Shown here: piece by piece, positions 118 to 30,756 of the stretch | How the letters are laid out: each line of letters starts with the position of its first letter | Numbering within the stretch: the stretch's first letter is position 1 | Assembly (NCBI GenBank): GCA_021786825.1 | Contig: JAJYMS010000134.1 | Span: forward strand, 2,470 to 66,469 | Direction of reading: 5' to 3' | DNA from: Bacillota bacterium | Lineage (GTDB): Bacteria; Bacillota; Sulfobacillia; JAMDAP01; JAJYMS01 | DNA: 64,000 bases | Program-made: the position numbers and the translations under genes | Notes under the pieces: generated by a model | The model's input: only the letters and a program-made list of their open reading frames with translations | Told to the model about the DNA's origin: nothing | Databases searched by the model: none

Positions 118-207
118 GGAGGAGTGCGAGAGCGGTTTAATCGAGCGGTCTTGAAAACCGTCGAGGGTGCAAGCCCTCCGTGGGTTCGAATCCCACCTCC
201 TCCGCCA
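118..207 (+). tRNA. tRNA-Ser (anticodon UGA), 90 nt with encoded CCA
   Basis: Acceptor stem GGAGGAG/CTCCTCC, anticodon stem GCGGT/ACCGT with loop CTTGAAA (anticodon TGA), long variable arm, T-loop TTCGAATC, discriminator G, then CCA. Confidence 0.93.
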
Positions 208-210
208 CCT
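150..210 (+). repeat. attL core (61-bp direct repeat, part of the functional tRNA-Ser)
   Basis: CTTGAAAACCGTCGAGGGTGCAAGCCCTCCGTGGGTTCGAATCCCACCTCCTCCGCCACCT is identical to 16594-16654. The flanking bases differ on both sides. Confidence 0.92.
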
Positions 211-263
211 ATCAACGTCTTGAGGTTCTGGCTCTTATTGGTAGAAAGCGTCCGATAGCCCAT

Positions 264-344: not shown

Positions 345-1505
345 TCAGCTCTGGCGTATCTTCTGGGAAGCAGCCCGTAGCGCGGTGTCAATGCGGCGGG
401 CTGCTTCTTCTTGTAGGCCGGGGAGAACGTGGCTGTAGGTGTCCAGGGTGATCCCGACGGTGGAATGCCCGAGACGCTCAGAGACCACCTTGGGATGGAT
501 GCCTGCGCGAAGAAGCTGACTGGCGTGGCCGTGGCGGAGGTCATGGAAGCGGATGCCCGGGTAGCCGGCCCTCCGGACGACATACCTGAAGGCGTTGGTG
601 AGCGCGCCCGGGCTCCAGGGCTGGCCATCAGGCTGTGCGCAGACAAGGCCGTTGTCCTGGTAGCCCGGTCCCAGCAGAAGTTTTTGCTTCGCCTGCTCCG
701 CTTTATGGCGGCGCAAGCCTTCGACCGCCAATGGGGGAAGAGCGATAACCCGGCGGCTCTTTTGGGTCTTGGGCTGCTTGAAGCGGCACCCCTCCCGCGT
801 CTGCTCCATGGACTGGCGGACGGCCAACGTGCCCGCCCTCAGGTCCACGTCTTGCCACCGGAGGGCCAGGATCTCGCCGCGCCGCATCCCGGTAGTGGCG
901 GCCAACAGGACGGGGAGATACAAGCGGCCCCCTTTCACGGCCTCCAGGAGGCGGGCGGTCGCTTCTTCGTCCAAGGTGCGCGTCTCGTGCCGCCGGGGAC
1001 GCGGCGGTTCCACGGCGTCCGCAGGGTTCCGGGCGAGAAGTTGCCATTTCACGGCCTGACGGAGAGCCTCCCTCAGGACCCGGTGATGGTGGAGGACGGT
1101 TTGCGCCGACAGGCCGCCCTGACCGTCCCGGCGCCCTGACTGGAGGGCCTGGCTGTAATAGGTCTGAATATGCAGCGGCTGAAGACGGGCCAGCGGATGC
1201 CCACCCAAGGCCGGCGCCAGGTGAACCTTGACGATCTCCGCGTACCGCTCGGCCGTTTTGGGTGCCACGTTGGTCTTGGCGTAGTGCTCAAGCCACTGAC
1301 CCAGGTACTCGCTCACCGTGAACTTACTCGGCTCGACGTAGGCACCGGTGTTGAGTTCGTGCAGGACCCGCGTGAGTTCCCGCTCGGCATCCTTTCGCGT
1401 TCGAAAACCACCCTGCCACTTCTGCCGGCGCTTGCCGCCCGAACCCCGGCCAAGATCGAGAACGAAAACCCAGGTGCCCCCCCGCTGCCGGACGTGACCC
1501 TTCAC
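345..1505 (-). CDS. int: tyrosine-type site-specific integrase (phage integrase family)
   Basis: 386 aa. It has an N-terminal SAM-like/arm-binding region. The C-terminal catalytic signature is ...RRGEILALRW...HDLRHGHAS...LGHSTVGITLDTYSHV (R..HxxR..Y). It lies directly beside the target tRNA. Confidence 0.93.
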   Translation of the reverse strand: MKGHVRQRGGTWVFVLDLGRGSGGKRRQKWQGGFRTRKDAERELTRVLHELNTGAYVEPSKFTVSEYLGQWLEHYAKTNVAPKTAERYAEIVKVHLAPALGGHPLARLQPLHIQTYYSQALQSGRRDGQGGLSAQTVLHHHRVLREALRQAVKWQLLARNPADAVEPPRPRRHETRTLDEEATARLLEAVKGGRLYLPVLLAATTGMRRGEILALRWQDVDLRAGTLAVRQSMEQTREGCRFKQPKTQKSRRVIALPPLAVEGLRRHKAEQAKQKLLLGPGYQDNGLVCAQPDGQPWSPGALTNAFRYVVRRAGYPGIRFHDLRHGHASQLLRAGIHPKVVSERLGHSTVGITLDTYSHVLPGLQEEAARRIDTALRAASQKIRQS

Positions 1506-1509
1506 CTAA

Positions 1510-2592
1510 TCATTCGCCCCCTTTCGCGTTTGCGTTTGGTTTGCATTCTCCTGGCGATCCTTTGGTGACGCGGGTTTTAGGTGCCTCGCCGGATTGGGAA
1601 ACCGTCGAGGGACCGTTGTCTCCCCTCTCCCTGGGCGGCCCTGCCCTTCCCCTGCCGGCCTCCTCCCTCTTCTTTCGCCGGAACCGGCGCAGGCGCTCCG
1701 CCGCGGCGCATTCCTTCCGGCAATAGACCTGCTTCTCTCGGCTGGGCGAAAAGAAGCGGTGGCAGGCCGCATTGGCGCACTGCCTAACCGGAAGTGAGCC
1801 CGCCATGTCCAAGGAAAGCATCAGGTACATCGCTGCCAGAAGGTCCGAGGTTCTCCACGTCTGCACCGCCTCCCCGTTTTTGAACTCGAGGTCTGGCCAC
1901 ACGCGCCCCAGCAATTTCCTGCTGGTGAGGGCGGTTAGCAGAGCCTCTCCCCGCTCCAGGGGTGTCTCGGTTGAGGCTGCTCCAGGGCGGCCTTCAGCCG
2001 CTTGCGGCATGAGTCCTCGAAGAAAGGCTTCGTCCCTATCTTTGTGTGCTCGCCATATGCGAAGGGCCTGCCTCATCCAACGGACCTCCTCGCGGAAGTC
2101 CTCCAATCGCTCCGACCTCTCCGCCTTGAGCGAAACTATCGCTGCTTGAGCCAGACGGTTCCTAATGGTCTCCGCTTTCATCTCCTCTTCCAAGAGGTTG
2201 GACCGCTCGGCTTCAGGCAGGCCCTCCACAATCCGGACCAAGTGTGCGGTCGGGGCGTCAGCAAACCCCTCTTCCTCTATGGCCCTACCGAGGATAGAAC
2301 CAAGCGCCAAGGCGCGCCTGGTGTCGCGCCTGGCGGCCGCGATTACCTCGGTTTCCATTTCCTTGACCTTCCTGAGTTCGAGTCCCAGAAGGCCGTACCG
2401 GCCGACAAACGCCTTTATGGCCTCCTCGTCCTGATCGTCAAGCGATGCGAATTCGTAATGCAGGCCGGGCGCTTCTCCCCTTGGATGGTAGTGGTCAAAC
2501 GGATCGTACCTGTCTTGGACATGCACCAGGTGGATCCACCCGTCTTCGATGACCGCAACCCCACGCCGTTGTCCCATGGTGAACGGTTTCAT
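1510..2592 (-). CDS. hypothetical protein with C-terminal Cys-cluster (CGNR-like zinc finger) and basic tail, in the position of a lysogeny repressor
   Basis: 360 aa from ATG 2592, with GGGAGG 5 nt upstream (the ORF track extends to 2616). The C-terminus reads CANAACHRFFSPSREKQVYCRKEC followed by an RRFRRKKREE basic tail. The gene is divergent from the XRE gene. Confidence 0.7.
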   Translation of the reverse strand: MKPFTMGQRRGVAVIEDGWIHLVHVQDRYDPFDHYHPRGEAPGLHYEFASLDDQDEEAIKAFVGRYGLLGLELRKVKEMETEVIAAARRDTRRALALGSILGRAIEEEGFADAPTAHLVRIVEGLPEAERSNLLEEEMKAETIRNRLAQAAIVSLKAERSERLEDFREEVRWMRQALRIWRAHKDRDEAFLRGLMPQAAEGRPGAASTETPLERGEALLTALTSRKLLGRVWPDLEFKNGEAVQTWRTSDLLAAMYLMLSLDMAGSLPVRQCANAACHRFFSPSREKQVYCRKECAAAERLRRFRRKKREEAGRGRAGPPRERGDNGPSTVSQSGEAPKTRVTKGSPGECKPNANAKGGE

Positions 2593-2603
2593 GGCGGCCT
2601 CCC

Positions 2604-2618
2604 TTTTGCAACGCAAAA
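2604..2618. promoter_or_regulatory. candidate operator palindrome in the divergent regulatory region
   Basis: TTTTGC-AAC-GCAAAA inverted repeat between the divergent genes 1510-2592(-) and 2707-2994(+). It shares the TTTGCAA/GCAAAAC half-site with the att-arm motifs. A second palindrome, TTCGCGAA, lies at 2635-2642. Confidence 0.3.
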
Positions 2619-2706
2619 CGAGACTCTAGACAGTTTCGCGAACGCTCGTTACTCTAAAACTAGCACTCGAACAACGTGAAGTCAAGCAAAGGGGGCGTGG
2701 GTCTTG

Positions 2707-2994: not shown

Positions 2995-3106
2995 CAGCAT
3001 TTATACCGCCCTGGCCCGGGGGGATATCCCCTCGCTCAGGGTCGGCCGCAAACTGCTCGTTCCCCGGGCGGCCCTCGAACGGCTGCTCAAGGCGGACGCC
3101 CGATGA
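2915..3106 (+). CDS. excisionase-type (MerR-like HTH_17) DNA-binding protein
   Basis: 63 aa from ATG 2915, with AAGGAGG 8 nt upstream. The sequence LTPAEAARILRLGRNSIYTALARGDIPSLRVGRKLLVPRAALERLL matches the helix-turn-helix excisionase family pattern. Confidence 0.75.
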   Translation: MQSARLEDLPEVLTPAEAARILRLGRNSIYTALARGDIPSLRVGRKLLVPRAALERLLKADAR

Positions 3107-3357
3107 TGCTCGGGCCGGCCTTGGCGGCCAGGAGACGGCGGCTGCTTCGCATTTTTTACCCCGTGCCCGACCCCTTCGACTCCGCAGAAAGTTGGGCGCA
3201 GTTCGCTCACCAGGACCTGGCGGCGATGGCCCGGGCCAACCTGCTCAGGGAACGGGACCGGGTGAGATTCGTGTTACTTTTCGACGATAAGCCCGACTCG
3301 TGGTACCTCGAGCGCTTGGTTGAGATCACCGCCCGGTTGGAGGAACAAACCCCGTGA
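3103..3357 (+). CDS. hypothetical protein
   Basis: 84-aa ORF. It overlaps the stop of the upstream gene and the start of the downstream gene by 4 nt each (translational coupling). No motif was recognised. Confidence 0.55.
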   Translation: MMLGPALAARRRRLLRIFYPVPDPFDSAESWAQFAHQDLAAMARANLLRERDRVRFVLLFDDKPDSWYLERLVEITARLEEQTP

Positions 3358-5900
3358 TGCGTGAGAATGCAGTCAACCCAAGAGCGTTGCCGCGTGGCGT
3401 ACGCGCCGATGCCGACGAGGTACGCGAAGCCGCTTGTGGTCACTGGCTCGACATCCTGTCTGCGCTTGGGCCGGCTTTGGCGGAAGCCTGCGGCCGAGTT
3501 GGCAAACACGTCCCCTGCCCAGTCCACGGTGGCAGGGACGGCTTCAGGCTGTTCAGTGACGCAGCGCAAACTGGCGGTGGTGTTTGCAACACATGTGGCG
3601 ACCGGGCGAACGGCTTCGCGGTGCTGCAGTGGGTCAACAACTGGGACTTTCCGCGAACCCTGGAGGAGGTGGCCGGATTCCTCCGCCTTGGTTGCGCCGC
3701 CGTCGCGGTCAGGTCCGCGCCCCGCCCGGCGGAAGCGCAAAGAGAAGCGGGTGATGAGGCCGCACGCCGGCGACGGCTGGAGGCCCTCTGGGGCGAAAGT
3801 GAGCCCGACCCCGGCCGGGTGGCCGAATACCTGCGGCACCGCGGCCTGGCCGGAGTAGTGCCCTGCACCCTTCGCTTGCACCCTGCGCTGGGCTACTTCG
3901 ATGACAAAGCGCAGCACCTCGGCAACTTTCCGGCCGTCCTCGCCCAGGTGCAGCGGCTGGACGGAGAAGTAGCAGCAATCCTGCGAACCTACCTGGACCC
4001 GGCCGGCCCGGGCAAGGCCCCCGTGGACAAACCAAAGAAGCTGACCCCCTCTGTCCGGGCCGGGGCCACACGAGGCGCTGCAATCCACCTGGCCGAGCCA
4101 GGCGAAACCCTGGCCCTGGCCGAGGGGATCGAAACGGCCCTGGCGGTCATGGAGGCCACGGGCGTGCCCGCTTGGGCCGGGGTCAGCGCGGGCGGCCTGG
4201 AGGCCGTCGAACTCCCGCCCCACGTCCACCAGGTCAAGGTATGGGCTGACCACGACGCCAGCGGGGTGGGCCAGCAGGCGGCCGCATCCCTGGCCGCCCG
4301 GCTACACGCCAAAGGGAAAAGGGTGTTGATGATGGTGCCACCCAGAGAGGGCGAAGATTGGCTTGACGTGCTAAACGAGGCGGGCCCGGACGCACTGCGG
4401 GCCGCCCAGGCAGGGGCGGTCCCCTGGGAGCCCGGAGACGGCGCAGAGGCGGAGGACGCGGCCGGCGAGGAAGAGGCCCCGCCAGGGGTTGCCGGGGAGG
4501 ACGTGGCCCCGCTTCCAACCGAAGTCCTGCCCGGCATGTTGGCCCGGTTTGTTGAAGAAGCTGCAGAAGCCATCCCGTGCCCAACGGATTTCGTTGCGGT
4601 GCCCCTCTTGGCCCTGGCCGGCGCGGCAATAGGGACAAGCCGCGTGTTGCAAATCAAACCCGGCTGGCGTGAAGGGCCGCGCCTTTACGCTCCCATCGTG
4701 GCCGACCCCGGCAGCGGGAAAAGTCCGGCCCTCGACCTGGTGGCCCGCCCGGTGTACGAAAGGCAAAAAGTCCTGGCCGGGCAGTTCGAGGTACTGGAGC
4801 ACGCTCACAAGGACGAGATAGCCCGGTACGAGGTTGAACTGCGCACGTGGGAAGAGCGGGCGCGGCTGGCTGCAAAGGGCAAAGGCGCGGATCCCGGGCC
4901 GAAGCCCGAGGAACCGGCAGGCCCAACGATGGCCCGGGTCTTCACGGGCGATACGACCGTCGAGGCCCTGGCCGGCCTCATGCGGGATAATCCCCGGGGT
5001 TTGGCCTTGATCCGCGACGAACTGACCGGCTGGGTACGGGGAATGAATCAGTACAAAGCCGGCAAGGGCGCCGACAAGCAATTCTATCTCTCCGCCTGGA
5101 GCGGCGCCCCTTACCCCGTAGACCGCAAAAGCGGCCCGCCTGTCTTGCTCTTCGACCCCTTCTTGAACGTGGTTGGGTGCATCCCCCCCGACCTGCTCGA
5201 CGAGCTGACCGACGAGCGGGGCCGTGAAGACGGCTTCGTGCACCGCCTGCTGTTTGCCTACCCAGACGCCGTGCCCCGGCGCTGGACCGAGACCACGGTT
5301 TCCGAAGAAGCCCAGAACGCCTGGCGTCGGGCACTGGATGCCCTGTGGCGTCTAGAACCCGCGGTGGACCGCGACGGGAAGCCTGAACCCGTGGCGCTTC
5401 CCTTCAGTGAGGAAGGCAAACGGGCCTGGGTGGAGTTTTGCGACGCGCACTACAGCAAGTTAGCGGACCCGTCTTTCCCGGTCCACCTGCGGGGGGCCTG
5501 GGCGAAACTGGACGGCTACTGCGCCCGCTTGGCGCTGATTCTCCAGGAATTGCGCCGCGCCTGCGGCGAGGCCAATAGCGAGGCCGTGGACACGGTCAGC
5601 GTCACGGGTGCGTGGGCCCTGGTGGACTATTTCAAGAACCACGCCCGGCGGGTGTACCGCCGTCTGCGGGCCGACGCCGATGACAAGCGAGCCGAGGGCG
5701 CGGCCAACTGGATCAAGGCTCGGGGTGGAGAGTGCCGGGCCAGGGACCTTATCGCCTATGGCGTGGCTGGGGTCAAGAAAGCGTCCCAGGCCCAGAAGTT
5801 GTTAGAAGACTTGGTTGATCGTGGCCTGGGGAGGCTCGAAGAGCGACCGCCACGCGGTGGACGAGGGAGACCCTCAACATGGTTCGCGCTCGCGCAGTGA
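3354..5900 (+). CDS. primase/helicase-like replication protein (zinc-binding + Toprim-like + DUF3987-like P-loop region)
   Basis: 848 aa. It has an N-terminal zinc motif (CPVHGG...CNTCG), a central Toprim-like segment (LAEGIETALA...VWADHDASG) and a C-terminal degenerate Walker A (ADPGSGKS), as in P4-alpha/DUF3987-type primase-helicases. Confidence 0.88.
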   Translation: MMRENAVNPRALPRGVRADADEVREAACGHWLDILSALGPALAEACGRVGKHVPCPVHGGRDGFRLFSDAAQTGGGVCNTCGDRANGFAVLQWVNNWDFPRTLEEVAGFLRLGCAAVAVRSAPRPAEAQREAGDEAARRRRLEALWGESEPDPGRVAEYLRHRGLAGVVPCTLRLHPALGYFDDKAQHLGNFPAVLAQVQRLDGEVAAILRTYLDPAGPGKAPVDKPKKLTPSVRAGATRGAAIHLAEPGETLALAEGIETALAVMEATGVPAWAGVSAGGLEAVELPPHVHQVKVWADHDASGVGQQAAASLAARLHAKGKRVLMMVPPREGEDWLDVLNEAGPDALRAAQAGAVPWEPGDGAEAEDAAGEEEAPPGVAGEDVAPLPTEVLPGMLARFVEEAAEAIPCPTDFVAVPLLALAGAAIGTSRVLQIKPGWREGPRLYAPIVADPGSGKSPALDLVARPVYERQKVLAGQFEVLEHAHKDEIARYEVELRTWEERARLAAKGKGADPGPKPEEPAGPTMARVFTGDTTVEALAGLMRDNPRGLALIRDELTGWVRGMNQYKAGKGADKQFYLSAWSGAPYPVDRKSGPPVLLFDPFLNVVGCIPPDLLDELTDERGREDGFVHRLLFAYPDAVPRRWTETTVSEEAQNAWRRALDALWRLEPAVDRDGKPEPVALPFSEEGKRAWVEFCDAHYSKLADPSFPVHLRGAWAKLDGYCARLALILQELRRACGEANSEAVDTVSVTGAWALVDYFKNHARRVYRRLRADADDKRAEGAANWIKARGGECRARDLIAYGVAGVKKASQAQKLLEDLVDRGLGRLEERPPRGGRGRPSTWFALAQ

Positions 5901-6115: not shown

Positions 6116-6148
6116 GTAGTGAGGGAAAAAACGGCGGAGGTGATCCTC

Positions 6149-6586
6149 GTGGGTAAGGGATTGGACATGTTCCGGGCACTGAAAGCCCAGCAGAGCCTCT
6201 TGGACATCGCAAGGGCCGTCCCCATCCCTCCGTCCTCCCCGCTGGCGGCGCCGGCCGAAGCACCAGCGCAAGGCCCTCTTTACACCGAACGGGACCTGGA
6301 GGCGATTCGCGCTTTGTTTCTGCCCATGTGCTCCGGGGCCGCCTACCTGGCACAGCCCACCCCGCAACATGACGTTTGGGTGCTGCGCGAAGGCGGCCGG
6401 TGGGCGGCCTGGGCCGGGTGGCACCCCTGGCGGCATGCCGAGGAGGAAGGCCCCCGGGTGCCGGCCAAGGAGTGGGACTTGTACCAGGGCCCCGACTTCC
6501 GCAGGGCGTTGAGGGCAGCGGCCGTGTTCGCCGCCGGGGCCACCAGGTGGCAGAAACCGCCCCGCCGGGGACGTGGGCCGGCGTGA
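6149..6586 (+). CDS. hypothetical protein
   Basis: GTG 6149 has GGAGG 8 nt upstream (the ORF track starts at 6119). The third codon position is GC-rich throughout. No motif was recognised, and the start is uncertain (ATG 6167 is an alternative). Confidence 0.45.
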   Translation: MGKGLDMFRALKAQQSLLDIARAVPIPPSSPLAAPAEAPAQGPLYTERDLEAIRALFLPMCSGAAYLAQPTPQHDVWVLREGGRWAAWAGWHPWRHAEEEGPRVPAKEWDLYQGPDFRRALRAAAVFAAGATRWQKPPRRGRGPA

Positions 6587-6636
6587 ACGCCTGCGGCGGG
6601 GGATCGGGCGGCCAGGCGAAGAACGAAGGAGGAACG

Positions 6637-7050
6637 ATGATCGTGACGCGAGACGAGCTACAAAAAGAACTGGAGGAGGCCCAACGCCTTCGGGCCGACC
6701 TGGAACGCAACTTGGCGGCCCTGGTGCCGGCGCTGGACCTGGAGCGAGACCTTCTCCCTCCGGCCACCGTCACCCAGGTGGTGAACCGGTTGGCCGCCTT
6801 GGGGTCTAAGAGGGCCGCAATCCACGCTAAACTTGAAGCATGCCAGTTCATCGAGTCCCAGCTTGCGGCCGGCCTCGAGCGGCTGGAGGCTACCGAAAAG
6901 GCGGCCGCCACCAAGGCCCGGGAAGAGGCCCTGGCCGCCCAGGGCCGGGAGGCGCTTGACGCCCTGCGCCAGGCCAGCAGCCCGGTTGAGCAGGCGGCCG
7001 CCTTGCACCGCCTCAGCAAAATCAGAACCGCCCAAGGGAGCGTGAAGTAG
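6637..7050 (+). CDS. hypothetical coiled-coil protein
   Basis: 137 aa from ATG 6637, with a GAAGGAGG RBS. The sequence is heptad-like and Ala/Glu/Leu/Arg-rich (ELQKELEEAQRLRADLERNLAAL...). The longer ORF-track version (6376) has an Arg/Gly/Pro-rich, non-protein-like N-terminus. Confidence 0.6.
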   Translation: MIVTRDELQKELEEAQRLRADLERNLAALVPALDLERDLLPPATVTQVVNRLAALGSKRAAIHAKLEACQFIESQLAAGLERLEATEKAAATKAREEALAAQGREALDALRQASSPVEQAAALHRLSKIRTAQGSVK

Positions 7051-7313: not shown

Positions 7314-8249
7314 ATGAACGGCGAGCATTCCCGCGACGACCTGTCCCGGCAGTTGAGCGCTTTGCAAGACCAGTTCGCCATCTACCAACGCGACCAGGAG
7401 TACCTCCAGTCGGTTGCCGACATGAAACGGGCCTGGCTGGAGCGGGGAGAAGACAACGTAGACGCCAGTCACCCCTTGGTGCTGGACCTTTACATTCCAC
7501 CCGAAACCAAGAAGGTCAAACGCGCCTTCCTGCGGCTCAGGCTGAAGCCGTTTCGGGCGTACAGTACCGGAGCGGCCTCGGGCGGCGGGGCGGCCGTCAC
7601 CAGTTCGGCGAGCGGGGTCCATCGCCACAGGATGTTTGCCCTGGAGGGCCTCAGTGACCTAGAGACTGTTGCCAGCGCTGGTGCCGGTGGACACGGTCAC
7701 ACCACTGACTCCGCGCCCACCCACAATCATGGGGTCACCGGCGGGACACTGCTCGCCACCGGAACGAGTGACCCCCATCCTACCGTTACCTGGGTAGAGA
7801 GCGGGGCACACTCCCACGCGACGGACGCTGTCGCTGACCACACCCATACCTACTTTAAGCCGAAACGGGCAACGACCTATCACGCCCTGATCGACCCCGG
7901 CAAACTGCAATACGGCATAGTGGCCTTCAGTGAGGGCTACTCTGCTGTCAACGCTTTCGATCTCTACACTTACGATGCTGCGGCCAGTCACGACCACGCT
8001 GTCGCGATCCCAAGTCACACCCACGGCATGACCTATGGCATCTATGCATCCACAACAGCGAGTGCCGTGCAGGTCGCCATCAACGGGACCAACCGCACGG
8101 CGGCGTTGGGTGGGCCATTCAGCACTGACGCCGACTCGCTGGATATTACCCAGTACCTGACCCCGACGGGTTGGAACACCGTGGAGTTGGGCTCCGCCAC
8201 CCTGGGGCGTCTCGGCGCGACCGCGTTTGTAGAACTCTATCTTCCGTAG
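7314..8249 (+). CDS. His-x-His repeat protein, candidate fibre/receptor-binding (tail-collar-like) protein
   Basis: 311 aa from ATG 7314 (AAAGGTGG RBS). It carries seven HxH motifs (HRH, HGH, HNH, HSH, HTH, HDH, HTH), e.g. AIPSHTHGMTYGIY, then a beta-rich C-terminal domain. The pattern recalls metal-binding HxH repeats of phage fibre tips and tail-collar proteins. Confidence 0.72.
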   Translation: MNGEHSRDDLSRQLSALQDQFAIYQRDQEYLQSVADMKRAWLERGEDNVDASHPLVLDLYIPPETKKVKRAFLRLRLKPFRAYSTGAASGGGAAVTSSASGVHRHRMFALEGLSDLETVASAGAGGHGHTTDSAPTHNHGVTGGTLLATGTSDPHPTVTWVESGAHSHATDAVADHTHTYFKPKRATTYHALIDPGKLQYGIVAFSEGYSAVNAFDLYTYDAAASHDHAVAIPSHTHGMTYGIYASTTASAVQVAINGTNRTAALGGPFSTDADSLDITQYLTPTGWNTVELGSATLGRLGATAFVELYLP

Positions 8250-8316: not shown

Positions 8317-11300
8317 ATGCCCTTCACACCTGAGGGCAAGCGGAGGCCGTGGACACCCGAAGAACTCGCTCAACTCCAGGCCAAGCGTGCCCCTACCGCG
8401 CCGTTGCCTGCGAGCACGGCTCCCAAGCCGTCGGAGCCCGCCCCCTTCGCCAAGGCCGCCAAGGCCCTGGCCGCCCGACTGGCCGAAATCCAACCGGCCT
8501 CCGAGGTGCCCGAGTTGCCGGAACCGACCCCGGCCAGCTTCGGCGCCCTCCGCCAAGTTGAAGCGCCGACGGGTCCCGAGGAGACCTTCCTGGAGCGGGT
8601 GGGCGACCGGATCAAGGAACTATACGAGGGGACCAGGGAGGTCGGCCAGTACCTCGTGAGCGGTGCCTCTGGGTCCCTGAGGGTGCCCCAACTGGCCCGC
8701 TCCGCCGCCAAGCACAACGTCACCGGGGCCGAGGGGGTTCTGCCGCCGCAGGAGGTCACCGGGTCCCCGGACTACGGGAACCTCAACCCCGCCTACTTTG
8801 GCATCAAGCCGGTGGAGGAGGCCAGGCACATCCCGCAGTGGGTGGCTGAGATGGCCACGGGTGCCGGCGAGGTCGCGCCCTACGTCCTTGGCGGGGCAGT
8901 GTTGGGCACTCTGGGGGCCGGTGCGGAGGCCGTCGGCGGTGAGGGAGCCGCCAAACTGTTGACCAAGGTGGCCCCGCGTCTGGCCCGGGCGCGGGCCGGC
9001 CAGGCGCTGACCGGCCTCGTTGGCCCGGCCGTCAGGGTCGGCGCCGAGATGGCCGCGGTCACCGCCGGCCAGAAGCTCGCCGACCTGGCGACTCAGGATC
9101 GGCCTATCACCGGTCTCGACCTGGCCGGCGCAGGCAAGGAGATCGCCGGTGGCTTCCTGGCCGGCGCGGGCCTGGGTGTCGCCGGGAGGGTGGCTGGCGA
9201 ACCCGTCCGCAAGGTCCTGGGGAGGAGCCTGGGGGGTGCCACAACATCCGGAATCGAAGGAGCCGTCCGCCGCGGGACCGTCGCCGCCACGGGCGGCGCG
9301 GCAACCGGTGCTACGCTGGCCGTCCTGAACACCGGCTTCCAGGCCCTGGCGCATCCCGGGCAGTTCAACGCCGGGCAGGCCACTTCCACCGCCCTGCGCG
9401 AAACGGCGTTCTTCGGGTTACTCGACGCCGTGATGTCGGCCATGCAAGGGTCCGTACCGAAAGCCGGGGCGTTCAAGTTCAGGCCCGGGGAGGCACCCGT
9501 GCCCGTTGGTGCGGGTGGCCCTCGCCGCGAAGGCTACACCGAAGTCCGGCCTGGGGTTTGGCTGAAGGCCGATCCCGCGACCGGCCGCCCGGCGGAAGCC
9601 ATAGTGGAACCGGCCAGGTACGGGGACTGGCGGACCAGGGAGGCCGCCGAACCGGGCGCGTCCGCCACCGCCGGGGTGGAGTCCGAGCTGGGCAGGCGCG
9701 TGGATGAGGTGGTGGGCGACATCGCCCCCCCGGCCGGCTTGTCCGTTGAACTCGTGGGGGGGCCGGGCCCCCGCCAGACGGAGGACGGCTTTGCCTTCTC
9801 AAACCCCGAGATCGAGGCCCGCTACCAGGCGGCGCACGGTGTCCGCGCCCCCGGCCTGGGGGCGAAGGCGCGGGAGCTTCTGGGGTCACTCTACCGCAAG
9901 GCCACCCGCGAATACGAGTGGCTTCCGCACACACCCGAATTTGCCCCCCTCCGCTTTAACCTGCTGCGCCTGAGCAAGCAGAAAGGCGTGGCCGGTGATA
10001 GAACCCTCAGGCTTCAGCAGGGGATCACCATCGGCCTGAAAGGCGACCCCAAGGGGTTCAGCCTGTTCGAGCGCAAGGTTCTCCTGGACGACCTGGCCGA
10101 GGAGGCCGAGGCCGGACACGACCTGCCCTTCGGGTTTAACCGCGAGGTCCTGGCGGCGGACAAGGCACGCCTTGACGCCGAGGCAGCAAAGAACCCCGCG
10201 ATTGGGGAGGCCGTCGCCCAGCGCCGGCAGGTCTGGGAGGCGATCAAGGGGGACTACATCGAGGCCATGCAGGCCGTGGGGTTCGATGTCGCCGACCGTT
10301 TCACCCGGGAGAACTACTTCCGCCATCAGGTCTTGGAGTACGCCAACGTCCGGGGGCTGTCCGGTACCGGCGGCAAGCTCCGGACGCCGACGGGGAGAGG
10401 CTTTCTTAGACAGCGGGAGGGCAGCGCCTACGACATCAACACCAACTACCTTCAGGCCGAGCACGAGGTCATGGCGCAGATGCTCTATGACATCGAAGTG
10501 GCCAAGGTGATCAAGTTTGTCGGCGACAGGTACAACATCGCCCCCCTGCTCAAGGCCGAGGGCACCGACTGGAGGAAGTCTATTCCCGCCGGGTACACGG
10601 CCTGGCAGCCCGGGGAGGGCAATACCTTCTACTTCGCCGACTCCGTCCCGGCCCGGGTGGCTGAACGGCTTTACTCCGGCGCCCTGAAGGAAATCGGCGT
10701 CGGCGCCGACGAGTTGCGGCGCGTGCTGGCCTTGGGTCAGCGTTTCCCGGAGATGGTGGTCAAAGAAGAGGTCGCCAAGACGCTCGACAACCTCACCAGG
10801 AGCCGCCCGGCCGACCCGATCCGCGACGTGGCCCGGGGCCTCCTCACCAGGTGGAAGATCTGGCAACTAATCAACCCGCTGCGGTTCCTCAAGTACAACT
10901 TCAACAACCTTTCCGGCGACGCGGACGCGGTTTTCGCCGGCAACCCCTCCACCTTTAAGAAGGCTCCCCAGGCCGCCAGCGAACTGTACCGGGTTTTCGC
11001 CGGGGACGGCGCCATGTCTGACGAGATGCGCGAGTGGTTCAACCGCGGCGGCATGCAGTCTACCCTCCAGGTCCAGGAGCTCGGGGACATCAACCAGCTT
11101 CGCATGTTCCAGGACCTCCTCGACCAAAAGGGTTCGTGGCGAGAGGTCCCGACCCGGGTCTGGCAAGCTTACTGGAAGAAGGCGCGGCTGTCCACCGACT
11201 TCCGGGAGGCCATTCTCCGGTACGCGGCTTACCTCGATTACCTCGAACAGATGCAGGGACGCGGCGGCCGGCCCCGGAACTTCGGGGCTTCAATCCCATC

Positions 11301-12465
11301 GGAGATCATGGCCCTCGACGACATCCGGGACCGGGCCTTTTGGCTCTCCAACGACCTGCTGGGCGCTTACGACAAGGTGTCCGTGCTGGGTCAGGGGTTG
11401 CGGGAGTATTGGTATCCCTTCTGGTCGTGGAAGGAGATCAACTTCAAACGGTATGTCCAACTGATCAAGAACGCGGCCTGGGACGAGGGACTGGCGCGGG
11501 TCACGGCCGCCAAACTGGTGCCCGTGCTGGCCCGGCGGTCCCCGGTGATCGCCCTCAGGGTCGGGGCGTTCGCGCTCCGGGCGGCGGGACTGGTGGCCCT
11601 GCTTTCGGCCTGGAACCATCTGCGGTATCCTGACGAAGAGGAAAGACTGCCGGCAGACGTCCGTGACCGGCCGCACCTGATCCTGGGGACGGACGCCAAG
11701 GGCAACATCAGATACACGGACCGGCTGGGGGCCCTCCCCGACTTCTTGCAGTGGTTCGGGCTGGAGAGCCCGCGGGCGCTCGTCCGCGACTACCTGAACG
11801 GGCACAAATCGGTCGCCCAGGTTGCAGTCGAGATGGCGAAGGCCCCTGTGAACGTCCTGGTGCAGGGGTTTGGGCCGCAAAAGACGCTGGTCGAGGTGGT
11901 CACCGGCAAGAGGCTGTACCCGGACCTGTTCGAGCCGGGCCCCGTCCGCAACGCCGGCCTTCACATCGCCCAGAGCCTCAGCCTGGGGGACGTATACTCC
12001 CGGCTGAAGGGGCTGCCGACCCGTCCGTTTGACCCCGGAAGCCTCCTCCATAAGGTGGCGGATCCGGGCGAGGCGGCGTACTACGACATTCTCGACGCCA
12101 AGCAGGAATTCCTGAAGAGCAAGGGCAAGCCGGGCGGGTACCGGGGGTCGGTGAGCCCCACCAGCCAGGCGCTGTACTACCTGAAGCTGGCCGCCCGCTA
12201 TGGCGACCGGGAGGCGTTTGGGAAGTACCTGCTCGAGTTCGCCAACCTCGGCGGTTCGGCCAAAGGACTGGGGACATCACTCCGGAACCTGAACTCCCTG
12301 GATGGCCTGACGGCCCCCGAAGCCCAGGAGTTCATCACCAGGTGGCTTGACGCTGAAGGGCGCCAGCGGCTGGCAACGGCAGAACGGTTTTACAAGGAGA
12401 CCCTCCTGGGCAACACTGCCCGATTCTTTCAAGAGGCGGTCCGAAAGAGGAGCGCCCGCCCCTGA
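8317..12465 (+). CDS. giant hypothetical protein (1382 aa), unassigned function
   Basis: Single uninterrupted ORF with RBS GGAAAGGGGAAG. It has a Pro/Ala-rich N-terminal linker and a long Gly/Ala-rich hydrophobic stretch (GAGEVAPYVLGGAVLGTLGAGAEAVGG...). A large helical C-terminal part carries motifs such as RENYFRHQVLEY and INPLRFLKYNFNNLSGD. There is no P-loop or any catalytic motif I can name. Confidence 0.9.
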   Translation: MPFTPEGKRRPWTPEELAQLQAKRAPTAPLPASTAPKPSEPAPFAKAAKALAARLAEIQPASEVPELPEPTPASFGALRQVEAPTGPEETFLERVGDRIKELYEGTREVGQYLVSGASGSLRVPQLARSAAKHNVTGAEGVLPPQEVTGSPDYGNLNPAYFGIKPVEEARHIPQWVAEMATGAGEVAPYVLGGAVLGTLGAGAEAVGGEGAAKLLTKVAPRLARARAGQALTGLVGPAVRVGAEMAAVTAGQKLADLATQDRPITGLDLAGAGKEIAGGFLAGAGLGVAGRVAGEPVRKVLGRSLGGATTSGIEGAVRRGTVAATGGAATGATLAVLNTGFQALAHPGQFNAGQATSTALRETAFFGLLDAVMSAMQGSVPKAGAFKFRPGEAPVPVGAGGPRREGYTEVRPGVWLKADPATGRPAEAIVEPARYGDWRTREAAEPGASATAGVESELGRRVDEVVGDIAPPAGLSVELVGGPGPRQTEDGFAFSNPEIEARYQAAHGVRAPGLGAKARELLGSLYRKATREYEWLPHTPEFAPLRFNLLRLSKQKGVAGDRTLRLQQGITIGLKGDPKGFSLFERKVLLDDLAEEAEAGHDLPFGFNREVLAADKARLDAEAAKNPAIGEAVAQRRQVWEAIKGDYIEAMQAVGFDVADRFTRENYFRHQVLEYANVRGLSGTGGKLRTPTGRGFLRQREGSAYDINTNYLQAEHEVMAQMLYDIEVAKVIKFVGDRYNIAPLLKAEGTDWRKSIPAGYTAWQPGEGNTFYFADSVPARVAERLYSGALKEIGVGADELRRVLALGQRFPEMVVKEEVAKTLDNLTRSRPADPIRDVARGLLTRWKIWQLINPLRFLKYNFNNLSGDADAVFAGNPSTFKKAPQAASELYRVFAGDGAMSDEMREWFNRGGMQSTLQVQELGDINQLRMFQDLLDQKGSWREVPTRVWQAYWKKARLSTDFREAILRYAAYLDYLEQMQGRGGRPRNFGASIPSEIMALDDIRDRAFWLSNDLLGAYDKVSVLGQGLREYWYPFWSWKEINFKRYVQLIKNAAWDEGLARVTAAKLVPVLARRSPVIALRVGAFALRAAGLVALLSAWNHLRYPDEEERLPADVRDRPHLILGTDAKGNIRYTDRLGALPDFLQWFGLESPRALVRDYLNGHKSVAQVAVEMAKAPVNVLVQGFGPQKTLVEVVTGKRLYPDLFEPGPVRNAGLHIAQSLSLGDVYSRLKGLPTRPFDPGSLLHKVADPGEAAYYDILDAKQEFLKSKGKPGGYRGSVSPTSQALYYLKLAARYGDREAFGKYLLEFANLGGSAKGLGTSLRNLNSLDGLTAPEAQEFITRWLDAEGRQRLATAERFYKETLLGNTARFFQEAVRKRSARP

Positions 12466-12501
12466 GCCGGGGGAAGGTCTGCGGAAAGAAGGTGAGCATT
12501 G

Positions 12502-12825
12502 ATGCCTTACAAGGATCCCGGCAAGCGGCGGGACTACGCCCGGGAATACGGCCGGCTTCGGAGAGCGGGGGGGCGTCAAACCCCTGGTCAAACCCTGGTG
12601 CCCCTGCCCTTCCGACTGCGCACCGCTCACGACATCCTGGCCCTGCTGGCGGAGCAGGTGGCCGCCGTCAGGGCCGAGGCGGACGCCGGGACGTTGGAGA
12701 AGGCCCGCACCGTCGGCTACCTCTCGGGAATCGCCCTGAAAACCGTCGAAGTGACCGACCTGGAGGCCCGGCTGAAAGTGCTCGAGGACCGGCTCGCCCA
12801 AGACGTCAAGTTGCGGCGGGCGTGA
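12502..12825 (+). CDS. hypothetical protein (basic N-terminus PYKDPGKRRDYAREYGRLRR, helical C-terminus)
   Basis: 107-aa ORF from ATG 12502, with GAAAGAAGGTGAG upstream. It has better protein-like composition than the overlapping frame 12492-12830. Confidence 0.6.
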   Translation: MPYKDPGKRRDYAREYGRLRRAGGRQTPGQTLVPLPFRLRTAHDILALLAEQVAAVRAEADAGTLEKARTVGYLSGIALKTVEVTDLEARLKVLEDRLAQDVKLRRA

Positions 12826-12830
12826 CAACG

Positions 12831-13319
12831 ATGGAGGTGGAGAACGTAGGTTTGAAGCGGCGGATCGAGCGTCTTGAAGTTGCCGTCCGGGGCGCGGCCG
12901 CCGGCCTCTGCCCGGTCTGTGGCGGCCGGCCTTTCGTCATTCTCCCCGCGGCTGAGGTTGAGCGCCGACTCGCGGAGTTGGGCGACGCAAAGGGCAGCCC
13001 GCATGGGGACACCCCCATTTGTCACTGCCTCGTGCTGGGCCCCGAGGAGGTCGACCGGCGGATTGCGCTGCTCAACCTCGAGCCAGTCGCGGAGCTCCCC
13101 CCAGGCCCTGCTGAGCGCGAGCCCGAACCCGCCGTGACCGCCCCTGACCAAGCGCGGCCAGCAGTGCCCCGGCGAGAGGCAGAGCCGCCGGTACGGGCCC
13201 CCGTGGCCGTGGCCAGGGAGGCCCAGGCCGAGAAGGCCCGGCCGCCCGCCCCCCAGGCCGACAGAAGCCCTCAGGGCGAACAGGACGACGATCATCCCGG
13301 GGTGGGGTTTCGTTGGTGA
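12831..13319 (+). CDS. hypothetical zinc-ribbon-like protein with Pro-rich C-terminal half
   Basis: 162 aa from ATG 12831, directly after the upstream stop codon. It has a CPVCGG...CHC cysteine pattern followed by a PEPAVTAPDQARPAVPRREAEPPVRAP low-complexity tail. Confidence 0.55.
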   Translation: MEVENVGLKRRIERLEVAVRGAAAGLCPVCGGRPFVILPAAEVERRLAELGDAKGSPHGDTPICHCLVLGPEEVDRRIALLNLEPVAELPPGPAEREPEPAVTAPDQARPAVPRREAEPPVRAPVAVAREAQAEKARPPAPQADRSPQGEQDDDHPGVGFRW

Positions 13320-13520
13320 GGAAGGGGACAAGTGGCAACTTACCGCCTCCAATGACCTTCTCCGCGTTGTCTCAATGTGGCTGGGTAACAGGGGGGTGCT
13401 CGCGTGGGGCGCGACGGCGACCAACAAGGCGGCCTGCAGCACCGTCCGGGTTAGAGGAATATCACACCGCGGTCGGGAATAGTCGCCCACCGAGGTCTGC
13501 TGAAAGAGGGGGCGCAAGGG

Positions 13521-13910
13521 ATGAAACGGCTGGTGGTACCGAGCATTCTGGTGGTGCTGCTTCTCTTGGCCATGGCATTTCGATGGACGCCTTGGCGCAC
13601 CTTGTTTACCTCTTCCCAGTCCCCAAACCAGGTGAGTTACCGCGAAGATCGCTGGAGCGGGCGGCGATGGGTACTACTGATTGGCATGGCGGGTCCGGAT
13701 AACGAAAAGCAGCTTGTCGCGTTGGAGCGTCCCGCCCTCCGCCAAGTTGTCGCCCCCGAGAAGGTGCGCGAAACGGAACAGGCGATCGCTACAACTAGAG
13801 ACCGCTGGACACAGGCCTGGTGGGGAGCTCTCCTTGCGGCGGCGGTGTGGTTACGCATCGCTGTGCGGCAACAGCGAAAGGTGTCCCGAGTCGAGGAGCC
13901 ACCGGCATAG
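13521..13910 (+). CDS. hypothetical membrane protein (N- and C-terminal hydrophobic helices)
   Basis: 129 aa with an AAAGAGGGGG RBS. The N-terminal segment is MKRLVVPSILVVLLLLAMAF and the C-terminal segment is WWGALLAAAVWLRIAV. Confidence 0.65.
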   Translation: MKRLVVPSILVVLLLLAMAFRWTPWRTLFTSSQSPNQVSYREDRWSGRRWVLLIGMAGPDNEKQLVALERPALRQVVAPEKVRETEQAIATTRDRWTQAWWGALLAAAVWLRIAVRQQRKVSRVEEPPA

Positions 13911-14045: not shown

Positions 14046-14729
14046 TTAGGGAACGTACTTCGTCCCGACGAGAAGGCGGCCTCTCTCGCGGCTGCCATTG
14101 CCGTCCAACTCGATGTCGACCCACTGCCTGCGTTGATCATCCCACCTTCCGATGGTGCGGTACTGCCGGTTGAATACATCTAGATACACTACTTCCAAGA
14201 GCGTGCCGTAATCTTCCGCTGGTGTGCATAGTTGGCCCCCGGTCCGACTCCGAACGACCTCGGTGCGATCGGACTTCGGGGGGACCAGCCCTATCAATGT
14301 TTCGAAGAGTGTTCTAGCACTTCCATCCCAAAGGCGAACCAGCACGTCCAACGCCGGACCGGGCCCACAATTGTCGACCTGTAGACACTCGCCGGCGCGC
14401 CCAAAGGGCGAGTGCGTTAATACCCTACCTGGTTCCTGCAACTGAGGAGCCCCAAACGGGACAATGATTGGGCGCACTGCAGCCCACCGCTCCTCGCGCA
14501 TTTCGTTTAAGGCGCCCTCAGCCGCTCTAGCCTGTTTCCGCTGAGCTACCGCTTGCACTTGTGCCCATACAACCACCGCGGCGGTAACAAGTAGATTGCC
14601 CACGGTCGCGAGGGCCATGACTACGGCGGATTTCTGTTCAAGCCAGGAGAAGGCAGCGGCGACCGGTGACCACACTGACCATAACAACCCCACTGCACGC
14701 TCCTCTCTCGGGAGACGGACTGTGCGCAC
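14046..14729 (-). CDS. hypothetical membrane-anchored protein (two N-terminal hydrophobic helices, beta-rich C-terminal domain)
   Basis: 227-aa ORF in a segment that looks lower in GC than its surroundings. The helices are LLWSVWSPVAAAFSWL and AVVMALATVGNLLVTAAVVVWAQV. The start codon is uncertain (GTG 14729 has no clear RBS). Confidence 0.6.
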   Translation of the reverse strand: MRTVRLPREERAVGLLWSVWSPVAAAFSWLEQKSAVVMALATVGNLLVTAAVVVWAQVQAVAQRKQARAAEGALNEMREERWAAVRPIIVPFGAPQLQEPGRVLTHSPFGRAGECLQVDNCGPGPALDVLVRLWDGSARTLFETLIGLVPPKSDRTEVVRSRTGGQLCTPAEDYGTLLEVVYLDVFNRQYRTIGRWDDQRRQWVDIELDGNGSRERGRLLVGTKYVP

Positions 14730-14794: not shown

Positions 14795-15040
14795 CTAGAC
14801 GGCGTTTCTCCGGACTGGCCGCCCCCCCGCAGGGGCGGCTTCCGTTTCCTTTTGATCCCGCTCCAGCTTTCGCTCCCAGTCCTTCCCCAGGTACTCGTCG
14901 AGGTCGGCCCGCCGGATGTAAACTTGGCGCCCGAACCGAGTCGCCGGGAGTTTCTCTTGGCGGGCCAATTCGTAGACCCTGTCGCGAGTCAGTCCGGCGA
15001 GTTGAGAAAACTCTTTGGCCGTAAGCAGTGCTTTCTTCAA
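14795..15040 (-). CDS. excisionase-type HTH_17 DNA-binding protein (paralog 2)
   Basis: Starts at TTG 15040 with AGGAGGTG 8 nt upstream (the ORF track extends to 15127). The sequence LLTAKEFSQLAGLTRDRVYELARQEKLPATRFGRQVYIRRADLDEYL matches the family pattern. Confidence 0.68.
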   Translation of the reverse strand: MKKALLTAKEFSQLAGLTRDRVYELARQEKLPATRFGRQVYIRRADLDEYLGKDWERKLERDQKETEAAPAGGRPVRRNAV

Positions 15041-15220
15041 AGCTGCTGCACCTCCTGTTTGTGGCTTTTTCGGCCCCTTAGCATGGCCCTGGAAGCGGGG
15101 CCAGCCGACTTCGGACCCTCTGGTCAAGTTCTGCGCGCCCTCACACTCTTCTTGTCGAATCCCACCAAGAGAGTCCCCCCTCTCTGTGCGGGAGGGGGAA
15201 GGCCTGCTCGGGTGAGCACC

Positions 15221-15442
15221 TTATTTCGTCCGGCCCTTGCCCTTGGGCAACGGAGCCAGCAACGTGTCGAGTTCATCTTGTCGGTAGCGCTTGTCGTCGG
15301 TGCCCGCCAGGGCGTAGGGTATGATCCTGCCGTCACGCACCATCCGGTAGAAGGTGGCCTTCGATATTCGGAGGTGCTCCATAGCCTGCTTAGGGGTCAT
15401 CCATACTGGTGCCAATGCTTGCGCCTCCTCGGTCTCCATCAT
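15221..15442 (-). CDS. excisionase-type HTH_17 DNA-binding protein (paralog 3)
   Basis: Starts at ATG 15442 with GAGG upstream (the ORF track extends to 15529). The sequence MTPKQAMEHLRISKATFYRMVRDGRIIPYALAGTDDKRYRQDELDTLL matches the family pattern. Confidence 0.68.
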   Translation of the reverse strand: MMETEEAQALAPVWMTPKQAMEHLRISKATFYRMVRDGRIIPYALAGTDDKRYRQDELDTLLAPLPKGKGRTK

Positions 15443-15587
15443 ATCAGCCTCAAAGGGGTTCGTAAAGAGTCTTAAGGTCTCACTGGGTATTGACCTGGGT
15501 GATTCTATATGATACCATAGGACACGCAACAGCCATGCGGACGCGGACTTGGTACTTCCGGCGTGAGCACGTGGGGGAGGTAGGAAG

Positions 15588-16593: not shown

Positions 16594-16654
16594 CTTGAAA
16601 ACCGTCGAGGGTGCAAGCCCTCCGTGGGTTCGAATCCCACCTCCTCCGCCACCT
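16594..16654 (+). repeat. attR core (displaced 3' part of tRNA-Ser, not a functional tRNA)
   Basis: 61 bp identical to 150-210. It lacks the acceptor 5' strand, D arm and 5' anticodon stem. Confidence 0.92.
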
Positions 16655-16667
16655 TTCGCTTGCGCCA

Positions 16668-16745: not shown

Positions 16746-17009
16746 GTGATTCGACAGAACTTCGTGCTGGAACGGCGCCCTCTCTGCTACCTGCGGGAGT
16801 TGGGCGAGCGGGCTGACGGCGTCTGCGGGATCAGGACCCGCCTGGCGGGGACCGTACTGCGCGGACTCGGTCTCACCAGCGCCTGGGCACAGCGCGTGAT
16901 GGCCGCGGGCCGGGACCAGCTCGCCCTCTTCCCGTGGGGGCCGCAGGTTGCAATACGGCCGTCTGGCGCCCTCCTCTACCCCGTGATTCGCTCCAGCCCA
17001 CCCATGTAA
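16746..17009 (+). CDS. possible small hypothetical protein (87 aa)
   Basis: GTG 16746 has AAGGGGGTGG upstream, and the third codon position is GC-rich. Its 3' end overlaps the serS 3' end convergently by 34 nt. No motif was recognised. Confidence 0.3.
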   Translation: MIRQNFVLERRPLCYLRELGERADGVCGIRTRLAGTVLRGLGLTSAWAQRVMAAGRDQLALFPWGPQVAIRPSGALLYPVIRSSPPM

Positions 17010-18247: not shown

Positions 18248-18253
18248 AGCGGC

Positions 18254-19372: not shown

Positions 19373-19375
19373 GGC

Positions 19376-27378: not shown

Positions 27379-27388
27379 CCTCCGCTGC

Positions 27389-29362
<1,974 letters not shown>

Positions 29363-29614: not shown

Positions 29615-29620
29615 CTCCGG

Positions 29621-30745: not shown

Positions 30746-30756
30746 GGCGCAGGCTC

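Follow-up and report, generated by a model that had tools for sequence, protein, structure and literature searches.

Among described phage proteins, those closest to the one reported here are the LPD38 polyvalent proteins and the ejection protein gp26 of Anabaena phage A4 (A-4L). We analysed a 1382-aa protein (the giant protein) encoded in a 64-kb stretch of the Bacillota contig JAJYMS010000134.1 (64,000 nt; the window), where its gene lies in an integrated element of 16.4 kb. LPD38 (PF18857) has no assigned function, and polyvalent proteins with a domain repertoire such as that of the relatives described below were proposed to be injected alongside DNA (both PMC5512222). The podovirus PTXU04 (PMC6563267), which infects Escherichia, encodes an LPD38 protein of 2198 aa, gp25, as its last big late gene, and gp25 is essential for infection by CRISPRi-ART (PMC11879866). 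In A4, gp26 (~1100 aa, last gene of the ejection cassette) has been placed by a cryo-EM model in the pentameric pre-ejectosome, as part of the outer layer and in contact with DNA (PMC12002296; PDB 9k3a_A).

The giant protein has the layout of PTXU04 gp25, a variable N-terminal cargo region followed by an all-alpha module of ~900 aa at the C-terminus, and both gp25 and the window-type relatives come from podovirus late operons, as products of the last large gene. The two types are homologous by profile comparison (97-99%) and by predicted fold, at an identity of ~15%. However, the 189 positions of the Pfam LPD38 model span only about one fifth of the module's length, and conservation within the window-type branch is far higher than within the LPD38 type; the branch is absent from deposited phage genomes. 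The window module is all-alpha, as is gp26, and it is basic (net charge +19), while gp26 has a DNA-binding basic cleft (PMC12002296). In contrast to the giant protein, gp26 is a stand-alone module without N-terminal cargo or a Gly/Ala domain, and A4 is a complete lytic phage whereas the window copy sits in a capsid-less element.

[quoted passage not shown] Its primase-helicase is of the P4 alpha-like DUF3987 type. Known satellites differ in their hallmark hijacking genes, of which we detected none in the element (capsid-size redirection, small terminase, Psu/Sid/Delta-like), and no helper is known for the element. Our literature search on satellites carrying ejection or polyvalent proteins found nothing relevant, and none is reported for the known satellite families in the literature found.

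We therefore propose, with a probability of about 0.55, that the giant protein is a podovirus-type ejection protein of the polyvalent class carried by a helper-dependent element. That it belongs to the podovirus ejection/internal-core protein superfamily we hold with considerable confidence; that the element is a helper-dependent satellite using the protein is more tentative, at somewhat below even odds. Ejection and polyvalent proteins as a kind are already known. What is new, as judged from sequence, is the delineation of a very large unmodelled branch and the homology that ties this branch to LPD38 modules and to gp26; also new is the recurrent residence of the family in capsid-less integrative elements, which is undescribed in the literature searched.

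The giant protein ends in the constant module of a large family

The giant gene and the parts of its product are as follows.

8317..12465 (+), giant open reading frame (ORF), stop codon included; uninterrupted, ATG start, 1382 aa
8299..8310 (+), Shine-Dalgarno-like purine run GGAAAGGGGAAG, ending 6 nt before the ATG of the giant ORF
8374..8601 (+), Pro/Ala-rich N-terminal linker, aa 20-95; Pro+Ala 41% versus 20% protein-wide
8707..9516 (+), Gly/Ala-rich N-terminal domain, aa ~131-400; Gly+Ala 40-46%, small-xxx-small repeats
9634..9798 (+), pre-module segment, aa 440-494, short and weakly conserved
9799..12462 (+), conserved C-terminal module, aa 495-1382; predicted all-alpha, net charge +19, reaching the protein C-terminus
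11539..11616 (+), aa 1075-1100 of the C-terminal module, SPVIALRVGAFALRAAGLVALLSAWN, sole strongly hydrophobic segment of the protein
11626..12186 (+), module part aa ~1104-1290, aligning with the Pfam-LPD38-covered part of PTXU04 gp25

The initial annotation had described a single uninterrupted 4.1-kb ORF with a good ribosome-binding site and a Pro/Ala-rich N-terminal linker, occupying a quarter of the element, and all of this holds (4149 of 16,444 nt, 25%). Third-position GC (GC3) of the giant ORF is 0.79-0.91 nearly throughout and 0.69-0.76 in the last ~250 nt, with codon position 2 lowest. Hence, the ORF is coding from end to end and is no high-GC artefact. The stretch after the linker, initially called Gly/Ala-rich and hydrophobic, is indeed rich in Gly and Ala, but a hydropathy scan of the giant protein found no 19-aa window above Kyte-Doolittle 1.4 within it.

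A full-length homolog search with the giant protein returned only itself: this first search scored only the 8000 candidates sharing most words, and words from the Gly/Ala-rich part had overwhelmed the index. With residues 440-1382 as query, we found 161 matches at 42-55% identity over >90% of the query. An exhaustive HMMER search of 1.84 billion representatives then gave 2145 proteins at E<=1e-3 (1563 at E<=1e-30), with end-to-end matches of the ~890-aa module at 42-61% identity over 92-99% of the query. The protein, initially taken for an orphan, thus belongs to a family of 2145 representative clusters defined by its C-terminal module through the kind of profile search that the initial annotation had suggested. 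With more than 2000 clusters, the family spans many phyla, is abundant in viral metagenomes and is without a model in Pfam, PHROGs and NCBIfam. We found no match to the giant protein in Pfam (E<=0.01), PHROG or NCBIfam and no tblastn match among 50,697 deposited phages; PDB sequences gave only low-complexity noise, whether the query was the single sequence or the profile.

The module begins near residue 495 and is C-terminal in all relatives, with a median of 5 residues beyond it; the proteins themselves range from 900 to about 5500 aa. In a 54-sequence alignment (A1) there are 54 invariant columns, many of them polar, and the giant protein retains all 54 (Y667, H670, D868, E921 and R963/E964 are among its invariant polar residues); it likewise retains all 37 invariant columns of a 40-sequence alignment (A2). 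Near-invariant motifs are YxRHQVL, GD, RYxxYLxY and PFWS, with RE..RY and PFxS also among the invariant residues. The four motifs of the initial annotation (LRYAAYLDYLE among them) rank with the family's best conserved sites, with means of 0.60-0.80 against 0.48 for the module. A resemblance to PLxRFG-type regions, also suggested at first, was not borne out: no Pfam family of any kind matched the giant protein or the constant module in 40 relatives (Pfam accession of the PLxRFG model not verified), and at the site in question the giant protein reads NPLRFLKY where the family consensus is SPRRxxKYN. An anchoring through a MuF domain was rejected, as Phage_Mu_F (SPP1 gp7 / Mu F) matched neither the giant protein nor the 40 relatives.

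N-terminal to the module, the relatives carry SLT and NlpC/P60 peptidoglycan hydrolases, ART-PolyVal, PBECR3, ddrB-ParB, GNAT and DnaJ, and the largest add SNF2 or Strawberry-notch (Sbno) helicases, methyltransferases and LPD3. Many relatives therefore combine at least two domains of disparate activity, the criterion of Iyer et al. 2017 for polyvalent proteins, which the giant protein does not do. The N-terminal 494 residues of the giant protein are essentially unique apart from the pre-module segment and a match to one protein (P0213; E 1.5e-19, same N-terminal position), the only alignable relative of the Gly/Ala domain. A Gly/Ala-rich segment of similar composition lies near residues 100-350 in 57% of family members, regardless of total length. 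By its sequence, the giant protein is best described as a cargo-less member of the polyvalent-protein family.

The module is linked by profile and predicted fold to LPD38-type modules and A4 gp26

AlphaFold2 modelling from the family alignment gave a mostly helical, compact and multi-domain model (predicted local distance difference test, pLDDT, 74.8; predicted template-modelling score, pTM, 0.71), with almost nothing but helices predicted for the C-terminal ~900 aa, in line with the initial annotation. A PDB fold search with the module found nothing similar (best E 0.4, template-modelling (TM) score <0.15). In BFVD, 45 viral models matched at E<=1e-3 with TM scores of 0.4-0.5 over ~1000 columns, and all 45 matches are C-terminal segments of large phage polyvalent proteins. 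These include Escherichia phage PTXU04 gp25 (Foldseek TM 0.50/0.44), Cellulophaga phi19:3, Arthronema TR020 and Anabaena A-4L ORF26, which is A4 gp26 and whose predicted model matches the module at E 1.9e-7.

Single-sequence hhalign and hmmsearch comparisons with PTXU04 gp25 and with A4 gp26, gp27 and gp28 were not significant, so we built real profiles on both sides, from 72 LPD38-type modules of IMG/VR and from 8 gp26 homologs of cyanopodophages. Window-type against LPD38-type profiles gave 97.2% locally (E 3.6e-11, 490 columns) and 99.1% globally (E 1.4e-17, 746 columns), against 0.2% for reversed controls. LPD38-type profiles against the gp26 family gave 88.1% locally (E 3e-6, 318 columns) and 97.1% globally (E 1.6e-10, 831 columns), against 0.1% for the reversed control. 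These comparisons point to homology of the module to LPD38-type modules and, from those, to gp26. A direct alignment of window-type positions 320-706 to gp26 positions 472-878 agrees with the two-step mapping within about 5 residues at both ends. Such co-linearity is not expected of chance alignments.

The link to LPD38 and gp26 offers a testable role for thousands of giant 'hypothetical' phage proteins, in which the constant module would be the capsid-core or ejection part and the N-terminus the injected cargo. The unusually strong conservation of the module suggests a precise machine or an enzymatic function.

In deposited records the gp26 family goes under conflicting labels ('DNA-directed RNA polymerase', 'tail protein' and 'tail fiber protein; host specificity'), as seen at 16766-20110 of locus L054, at 301-3444 of L225 and in the RefSeq copies of A-4L, Pf-WMP3/4 and PP. 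These annotations are probably wrong, as cryo-EM places gp26 inside the capsid.

Family genes take the last ejection-protein position in complete phages

Family loci number at least 99 in IMG/VR, mostly on 35-65-kb contigs, and 43 in GTDB, where they are found in metagenome-assembled genomes (MAGs) from many phyla; some Bryobacterales have as many as about seven copies. In complete phage-like genomes we found the family gene as the last large gene of a podovirus-type structural operon, at the end of the ejection cassette. The order in L051/52 is Terminase_3, P22_portal, capsid, genes of 293, 975, 64, 286 and 449 aa, then the giant gene. In L050, P22 coat and Phage_stabilise are followed by several genes, including one of 255 aa that matches phrog_598 'DNA ejection' (E 1.3e-15), and then by the giant gene. 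L055 and L057 have an SU10-type adaptor, a nozzle-sized gene, one gene of 546/393 aa, one of 421-475 aa and the giant gene; in L056 a 441-aa gene precedes the giant gene and no adaptor match was found. In L001, lysis genes and an integrase follow the giant gene. Beyond close relatives, no upstream partner gene is conserved across loci. We classified 139 loci by hallmark genes at BLAST level, but the sensitivity was too low to put numbers on phage and small-element contexts.

P22- and T7-like phages have their last ejection protein at this same gene position, which follows the tail genes and the smaller ejection proteins. It is occupied there by the two gp16 proteins, the largest and last ejection proteins of T7 and P22, and some family members have an N-terminal lytic transglycosylase (PF01464), as T7 gp16 does. 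Marine family members are 1318 aa long, which is also the length of T7 gp16, a match we take to be coincidental. Solved T7 or P22 ejection proteins gave no sequence or fold match to the giant protein, and the likeness to the gp16 proteins is one of role and position, an analogy and not a demonstrated homology. The ejection role that the initial annotation had listed among several is thus supported by podovirus-like gene position together with the profile-homology chain to A4 gp26. Conjugation-like transfer, another role on that list, found no support, since no type IV secretion or conjugation genes were seen in any context examined.

The same contexts bear on a tape measure protein of a long-tailed phage, a reading suggested by the length, helicity and Gly/Ala-rich segment of the protein and by one L051 neighbour with a weak tape measure PHROG match (E 1.2e-3). 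No tape measure family matches the giant protein, its relatives stand in podoviral contexts (P22 portal and coat, SU10 adaptor) with no tail tube, sheath or chaperone family reported, the family gene is always last in its operon, and the model is compact and multi-domain (pTM 0.71) and not an extended coil. The tape-measure-like character first ascribed to the protein is effectively refuted by the missing family match, the podoviral contexts and the globular fold, leaving this reading a negligible probability.

An intracellular effector is also conceivable, for instance one that serves a satellite or the host and, as a mimic of the core protein, poisons particle assembly or DNA ejection in an infecting podovirus, or a polyvalent anti-defence protein acting in situ. 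Satellites often interfere with their helpers (PMC10085698), the core component to which the gene shows homology has to co-assemble, and copies are multiple in Bryobacterales chromosomes, with no capsid gene recognised among the neighbours examined. We consider this reading quite unlikely: the gene sits in the virion module of all complete phage genomes, small-element and phage copies are alike in conserved residues and phylogeny, and there was no positive defence-system match, although no PADLOC scan was made.

The integrated element has its own replication and integration genes and no recognised packaging genes

The element is bounded by direct repeats at a tRNA gene and spans 16,444 nt from att to att, with the host serS gene after it. 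Its features other than the giant ORF are these.

150..213 (+), attL, 64-nt direct repeat over the 3' part of tRNA-Ser (118-207)
345..1505 (-), tyrosine integrase
1510..2616 (-), 368-aa gene beside the integrase, Cys-rich C-terminus (CANAACHRFF...YCRKEC)
2704-2994 (+), repressor-like helix-turn-helix (HTH), overlapping the 2843-3106 ORF in another frame
2843-3106 (+), excisionase-like HTH
3354..5900 (+), primase-helicase with Zn ribbon, DUF7146, Toprim and DUF3987
6119-6586 (+), 155-aa gene with coding periodicity, function unassigned
within 6376-7050 (+), coiled-coil protein with coding periodicity
7314..8249 (+), HxH-repeat protein, upstream partner gene of the giant gene; ORF opens at 7092, likely start Met at 7314
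12499-12825 (+), 108 aa
12831-13319 (+), ~162 aa
13521-13910 (+), 129-aa membrane protein
14046-14729 (-), 226-aa membrane protein
14795-15127 and 15221-15529 (-), two excisionase-type HTH genes
16594..16657 (+), attR, second repeat copy, 98% identical

No ORF of the element matched a capsid, portal, terminase, scaffold or tail family in Pfam, PHROG and NCBIfam scans. The giant ORF is not downstream of portal, coat, adaptor or nozzle genes, none of which is in the element, and its sole virion-like neighbour is the HxH protein, whose C-terminus has a PHROG 'minor head protein' match. With an integrase, regulators and a primase-helicase of its own, yet lacking capsid, portal and terminase genes, the element is most likely helper-dependent.

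In the mechanism that we propose, the constant 890-aa all-alpha module would build the giant protein into the capsid core; by homology, it would correspond to A4 gp26, the outer pre-ejectosome layer that contacts packaged DNA. At infection the protein would exit the capsid together with the DNA. Its N-terminal half (Pro/Ala linker and Gly/Ala domain) would fill the slot of the relatives' peptidoglycan hydrolases and anti-defence enzymes as a minimal enzyme-less version, possibly with membrane or channel activity. The element would rely on the particles of a helper podovirus, into which the giant protein, and perhaps also the HxH protein, would be loaded.

The same gene content could instead be that of a defective prophage, a temperate podovirus that has lost its packaging, head and tail block and in which the giant gene is a leftover without a current role. 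The gene order is that of a complete prophage from which some 20 kb of structural genes are missing (cf. L001), and capsid, portal and terminase genes are absent; a sister element (L059, below) has no giant gene, and some Bryobacterales copies are split. Decay fits poorly with an ORF that is intact over 4.1 kb with full codon periodicity and 54 of 54 family-invariant residues, with att sites that are 98% identical, and with an intact integrase, excisionase-type genes and primase-helicase. The reduced layout, moreover, is seen again in at least three further lineages, whose replication modules differ. We therefore judge decay unlikely; were the element only a decayed prophage, the finding would be an ordinary annotation gap.

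Reduced layouts recur in other lineages

Three other lineages (L002, L004 and L049) carry the family gene with an integrase and/or a primase or helicase and no capsid, portal or terminase. L002/3/8 have excisionase-type HTHs, a DUF3987 primase-helicase, small ORFs, genes of 384, 406 and 212 aa and the giant gene; L004/5 have an integrase, a DnaG-type primase, a 610-aa gene, a 442-aa gene and the giant gene. L049 has an integrase, DUF6076, an HTH, a primase, VapE, a DEAD helicase, RusA, a sigma-like gene, a 379-aa gene and the giant gene. In a neighbour-joining tree of the module (unbootstrapped), small-element copies are scattered among phage-borne ones. Hence, there was more than one origin of the reduced layout, or more than one capture of the gene. 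This recurrence in small integrase-plus-primase elements raises the possibility of satellites that supply their own ejection protein, which has not been described previously.

The HxH protein encoded upstream of the giant gene has ~19 relatives, mostly on 13-20-kb contigs, among them genes at 10001-10738 of L058 and 8829-9515 of L059. The family has a conserved N-part (DNVDxTHPL...LRLRLxxFRAYSTGAASGGG), then HxH motifs in a variable run and, at the C-terminus, a beta-sandwich that is again conserved (VTVxINGTDRTAALGGPF...GWNTIEL); longer relatives add fibre-like N-terminal repeats. PHROGs labels matching C-termini of the family 'minor head protein/virion structural protein'. The HxH protein of the window is modelled with a helix at its N-terminus, a confidently predicted beta-sandwich and, in the middle, disordered HxH repeats. 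A PDB fold search with this model gave nothing significant, only weak GH2-type beta-sandwich similarity, and a search of deposited phages gave no match of note. In L058 the HxH gene adjoins a 2506-aa LPD38-type giant gene whose product has its own N-terminal Gly/Ala-rich segment, the same pairing as in the window.

L059 is a 16.1-kb sister element that shares with the window element the integrase (31% identity), the 323/368-aa gene (39%), an HTH (52%) and the HxH gene (40-63%), and has a different replication module (DUF3102, ORF6C). The 368-aa gene is thus found at the same position in L059, and L049 has a DUF6076 protein at that position; it may be a conserved integrase partner in such elements.

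Small elements of this kind might alternatively be a new capsid-less or vesicle-type virus, in which the giant and HxH proteins form or arm a transfer particle. The 16.4-kb element does have replication and integration genes and no recognisable capsid, HxH homologs lie on ~16-kb contigs, and pairs of a giant and an HxH gene occur for two different types of module. This reading is very improbable, given that the same module occurs in ordinary tailed phages with HK97-type capsids, portals and terminases and is homologous to an internal core protein, that the giant protein is without the strong membrane anchors expected of a fusogen, and that no terminal repeats, and so no complete genomes, were found on the small IMG/VR contigs.

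A broader extension of the helper-dependent reading is on balance doubtful. It would make these elements an undescribed class, present in several bacterial phyla, that brings its own DNA-entry equipment and, in contrast to known satellites, does not remodel the capsid. A gp26-type pilot protein and the HxH protein (possibly receptor-binding) would then enter the helper particle with the 16-kb genome, and the element would substitute an internal core of its own, and perhaps its own host recognition, for those of the helper.

Evidence that weighs against a helper-dependent ejection protein

Several results speak against our proposal, some of them concerning homology to known ejection proteins. 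The solved gp26 chain, 9k3a_A, is outside the top 50 PDB fold matches; this may be due to a different in-capsid conformation or to a chain that is only partly modelled. The direct comparison of window-type and gp26-family profiles is weak locally and not significant alone (13.6%, E 2e-3, 337 columns), and globally it gives 0.1% (E 0.45); the reversed control gives 0.4% (E 0.14). The Pfam LPD38 model misses the giant protein and 40 of 40 relatives even at E<=1, while its positive control, PTXU04 gp25, matches at 1.6e-38 (residues 1904-2081).

Others concern the protein. The module keeps an identity of about 45-55% from phylum to phylum and has many polar residues that are invariant. Such strong conservation is unusual among ejection proteins and could mean an additional, perhaps enzymatic, role. 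No enzymatic cargo or peptidoglycan hydrolase is recognisable in the giant protein. The transmembrane-helix check of the Gly/Ala region, also suggested in the initial annotation, revealed no strongly hydrophobic 19-aa window in the hydropathy scan and thus no clear transmembrane helix.

The remainder concern the element and its host. The 64-kb window holds neither a helper phage nor capsid genes, and incorporation of the giant protein into a virion is not demonstrable from it. The host, judged from the nearest relatives, is probably a member of Bacillota, and ejectosomes are characterised mainly in Gram-negative hosts. As the sister element L059 has no giant gene, the gene may not be essential, which weakens the initial claim that so large a protein must be central to the biology of the element.

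Other loci and neighbouring features

Family copies of 2200-4400 aa with ddrB-ParB or LPD3 occur in Bryobacterales MAGs (L031-L047) and a Desulfovibrionaceae MAG (L027/L044). Their neighbours are ankyrin-repeat, outer-membrane beta-barrel and IS110 transposase genes, with no phage genes among them. Several of these copies are split into 2-3 ORFs, as pseudogenes or through long-read frameshift errors. Two contigs of 2.6-3.5 kb, binned as Hadarchaeota and Methanosarcinales (L019 and L020), carry members at 36-47% identity, which may reflect mis-binning or a module in archaeal viruses. In L055, an mtd-like protein (PF21916; 256-2742) lies beside a reverse transcriptase, upstream of the adaptor genes, and the pair looks like a diversity-generating retroelement.

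Within the element, the three same-strand genes downstream of the giant gene (12499..13910) have no family match. A mechanically called 275-aa ORF at 12492-13319 (+) is probably not a single gene: codon-position GC follows the 108-aa ORF at 12499-12825 first and then switches frame to the ~162-aa protein near 12831. A promoter and terminator scan gave counts at chance level. This one element of 16 kb has three separate excisionase/MerR-type HTH genes (phrog_66), of which two are neighbours close to attR.

In the host region at 24937-33626 we found gyrA (24937-27378, -), a gyrB-sized ORF (27389-29323, -) and dnaN/dnaA-sized ORFs. The cumulative GC skew has its minimum near 25-26 kb and then rises steeply, with a skew of 0.15-0.30 over 31-42 kb. 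Hence, from these ORFs and the skew minimum, the window probably spans the chromosomal replication origin.

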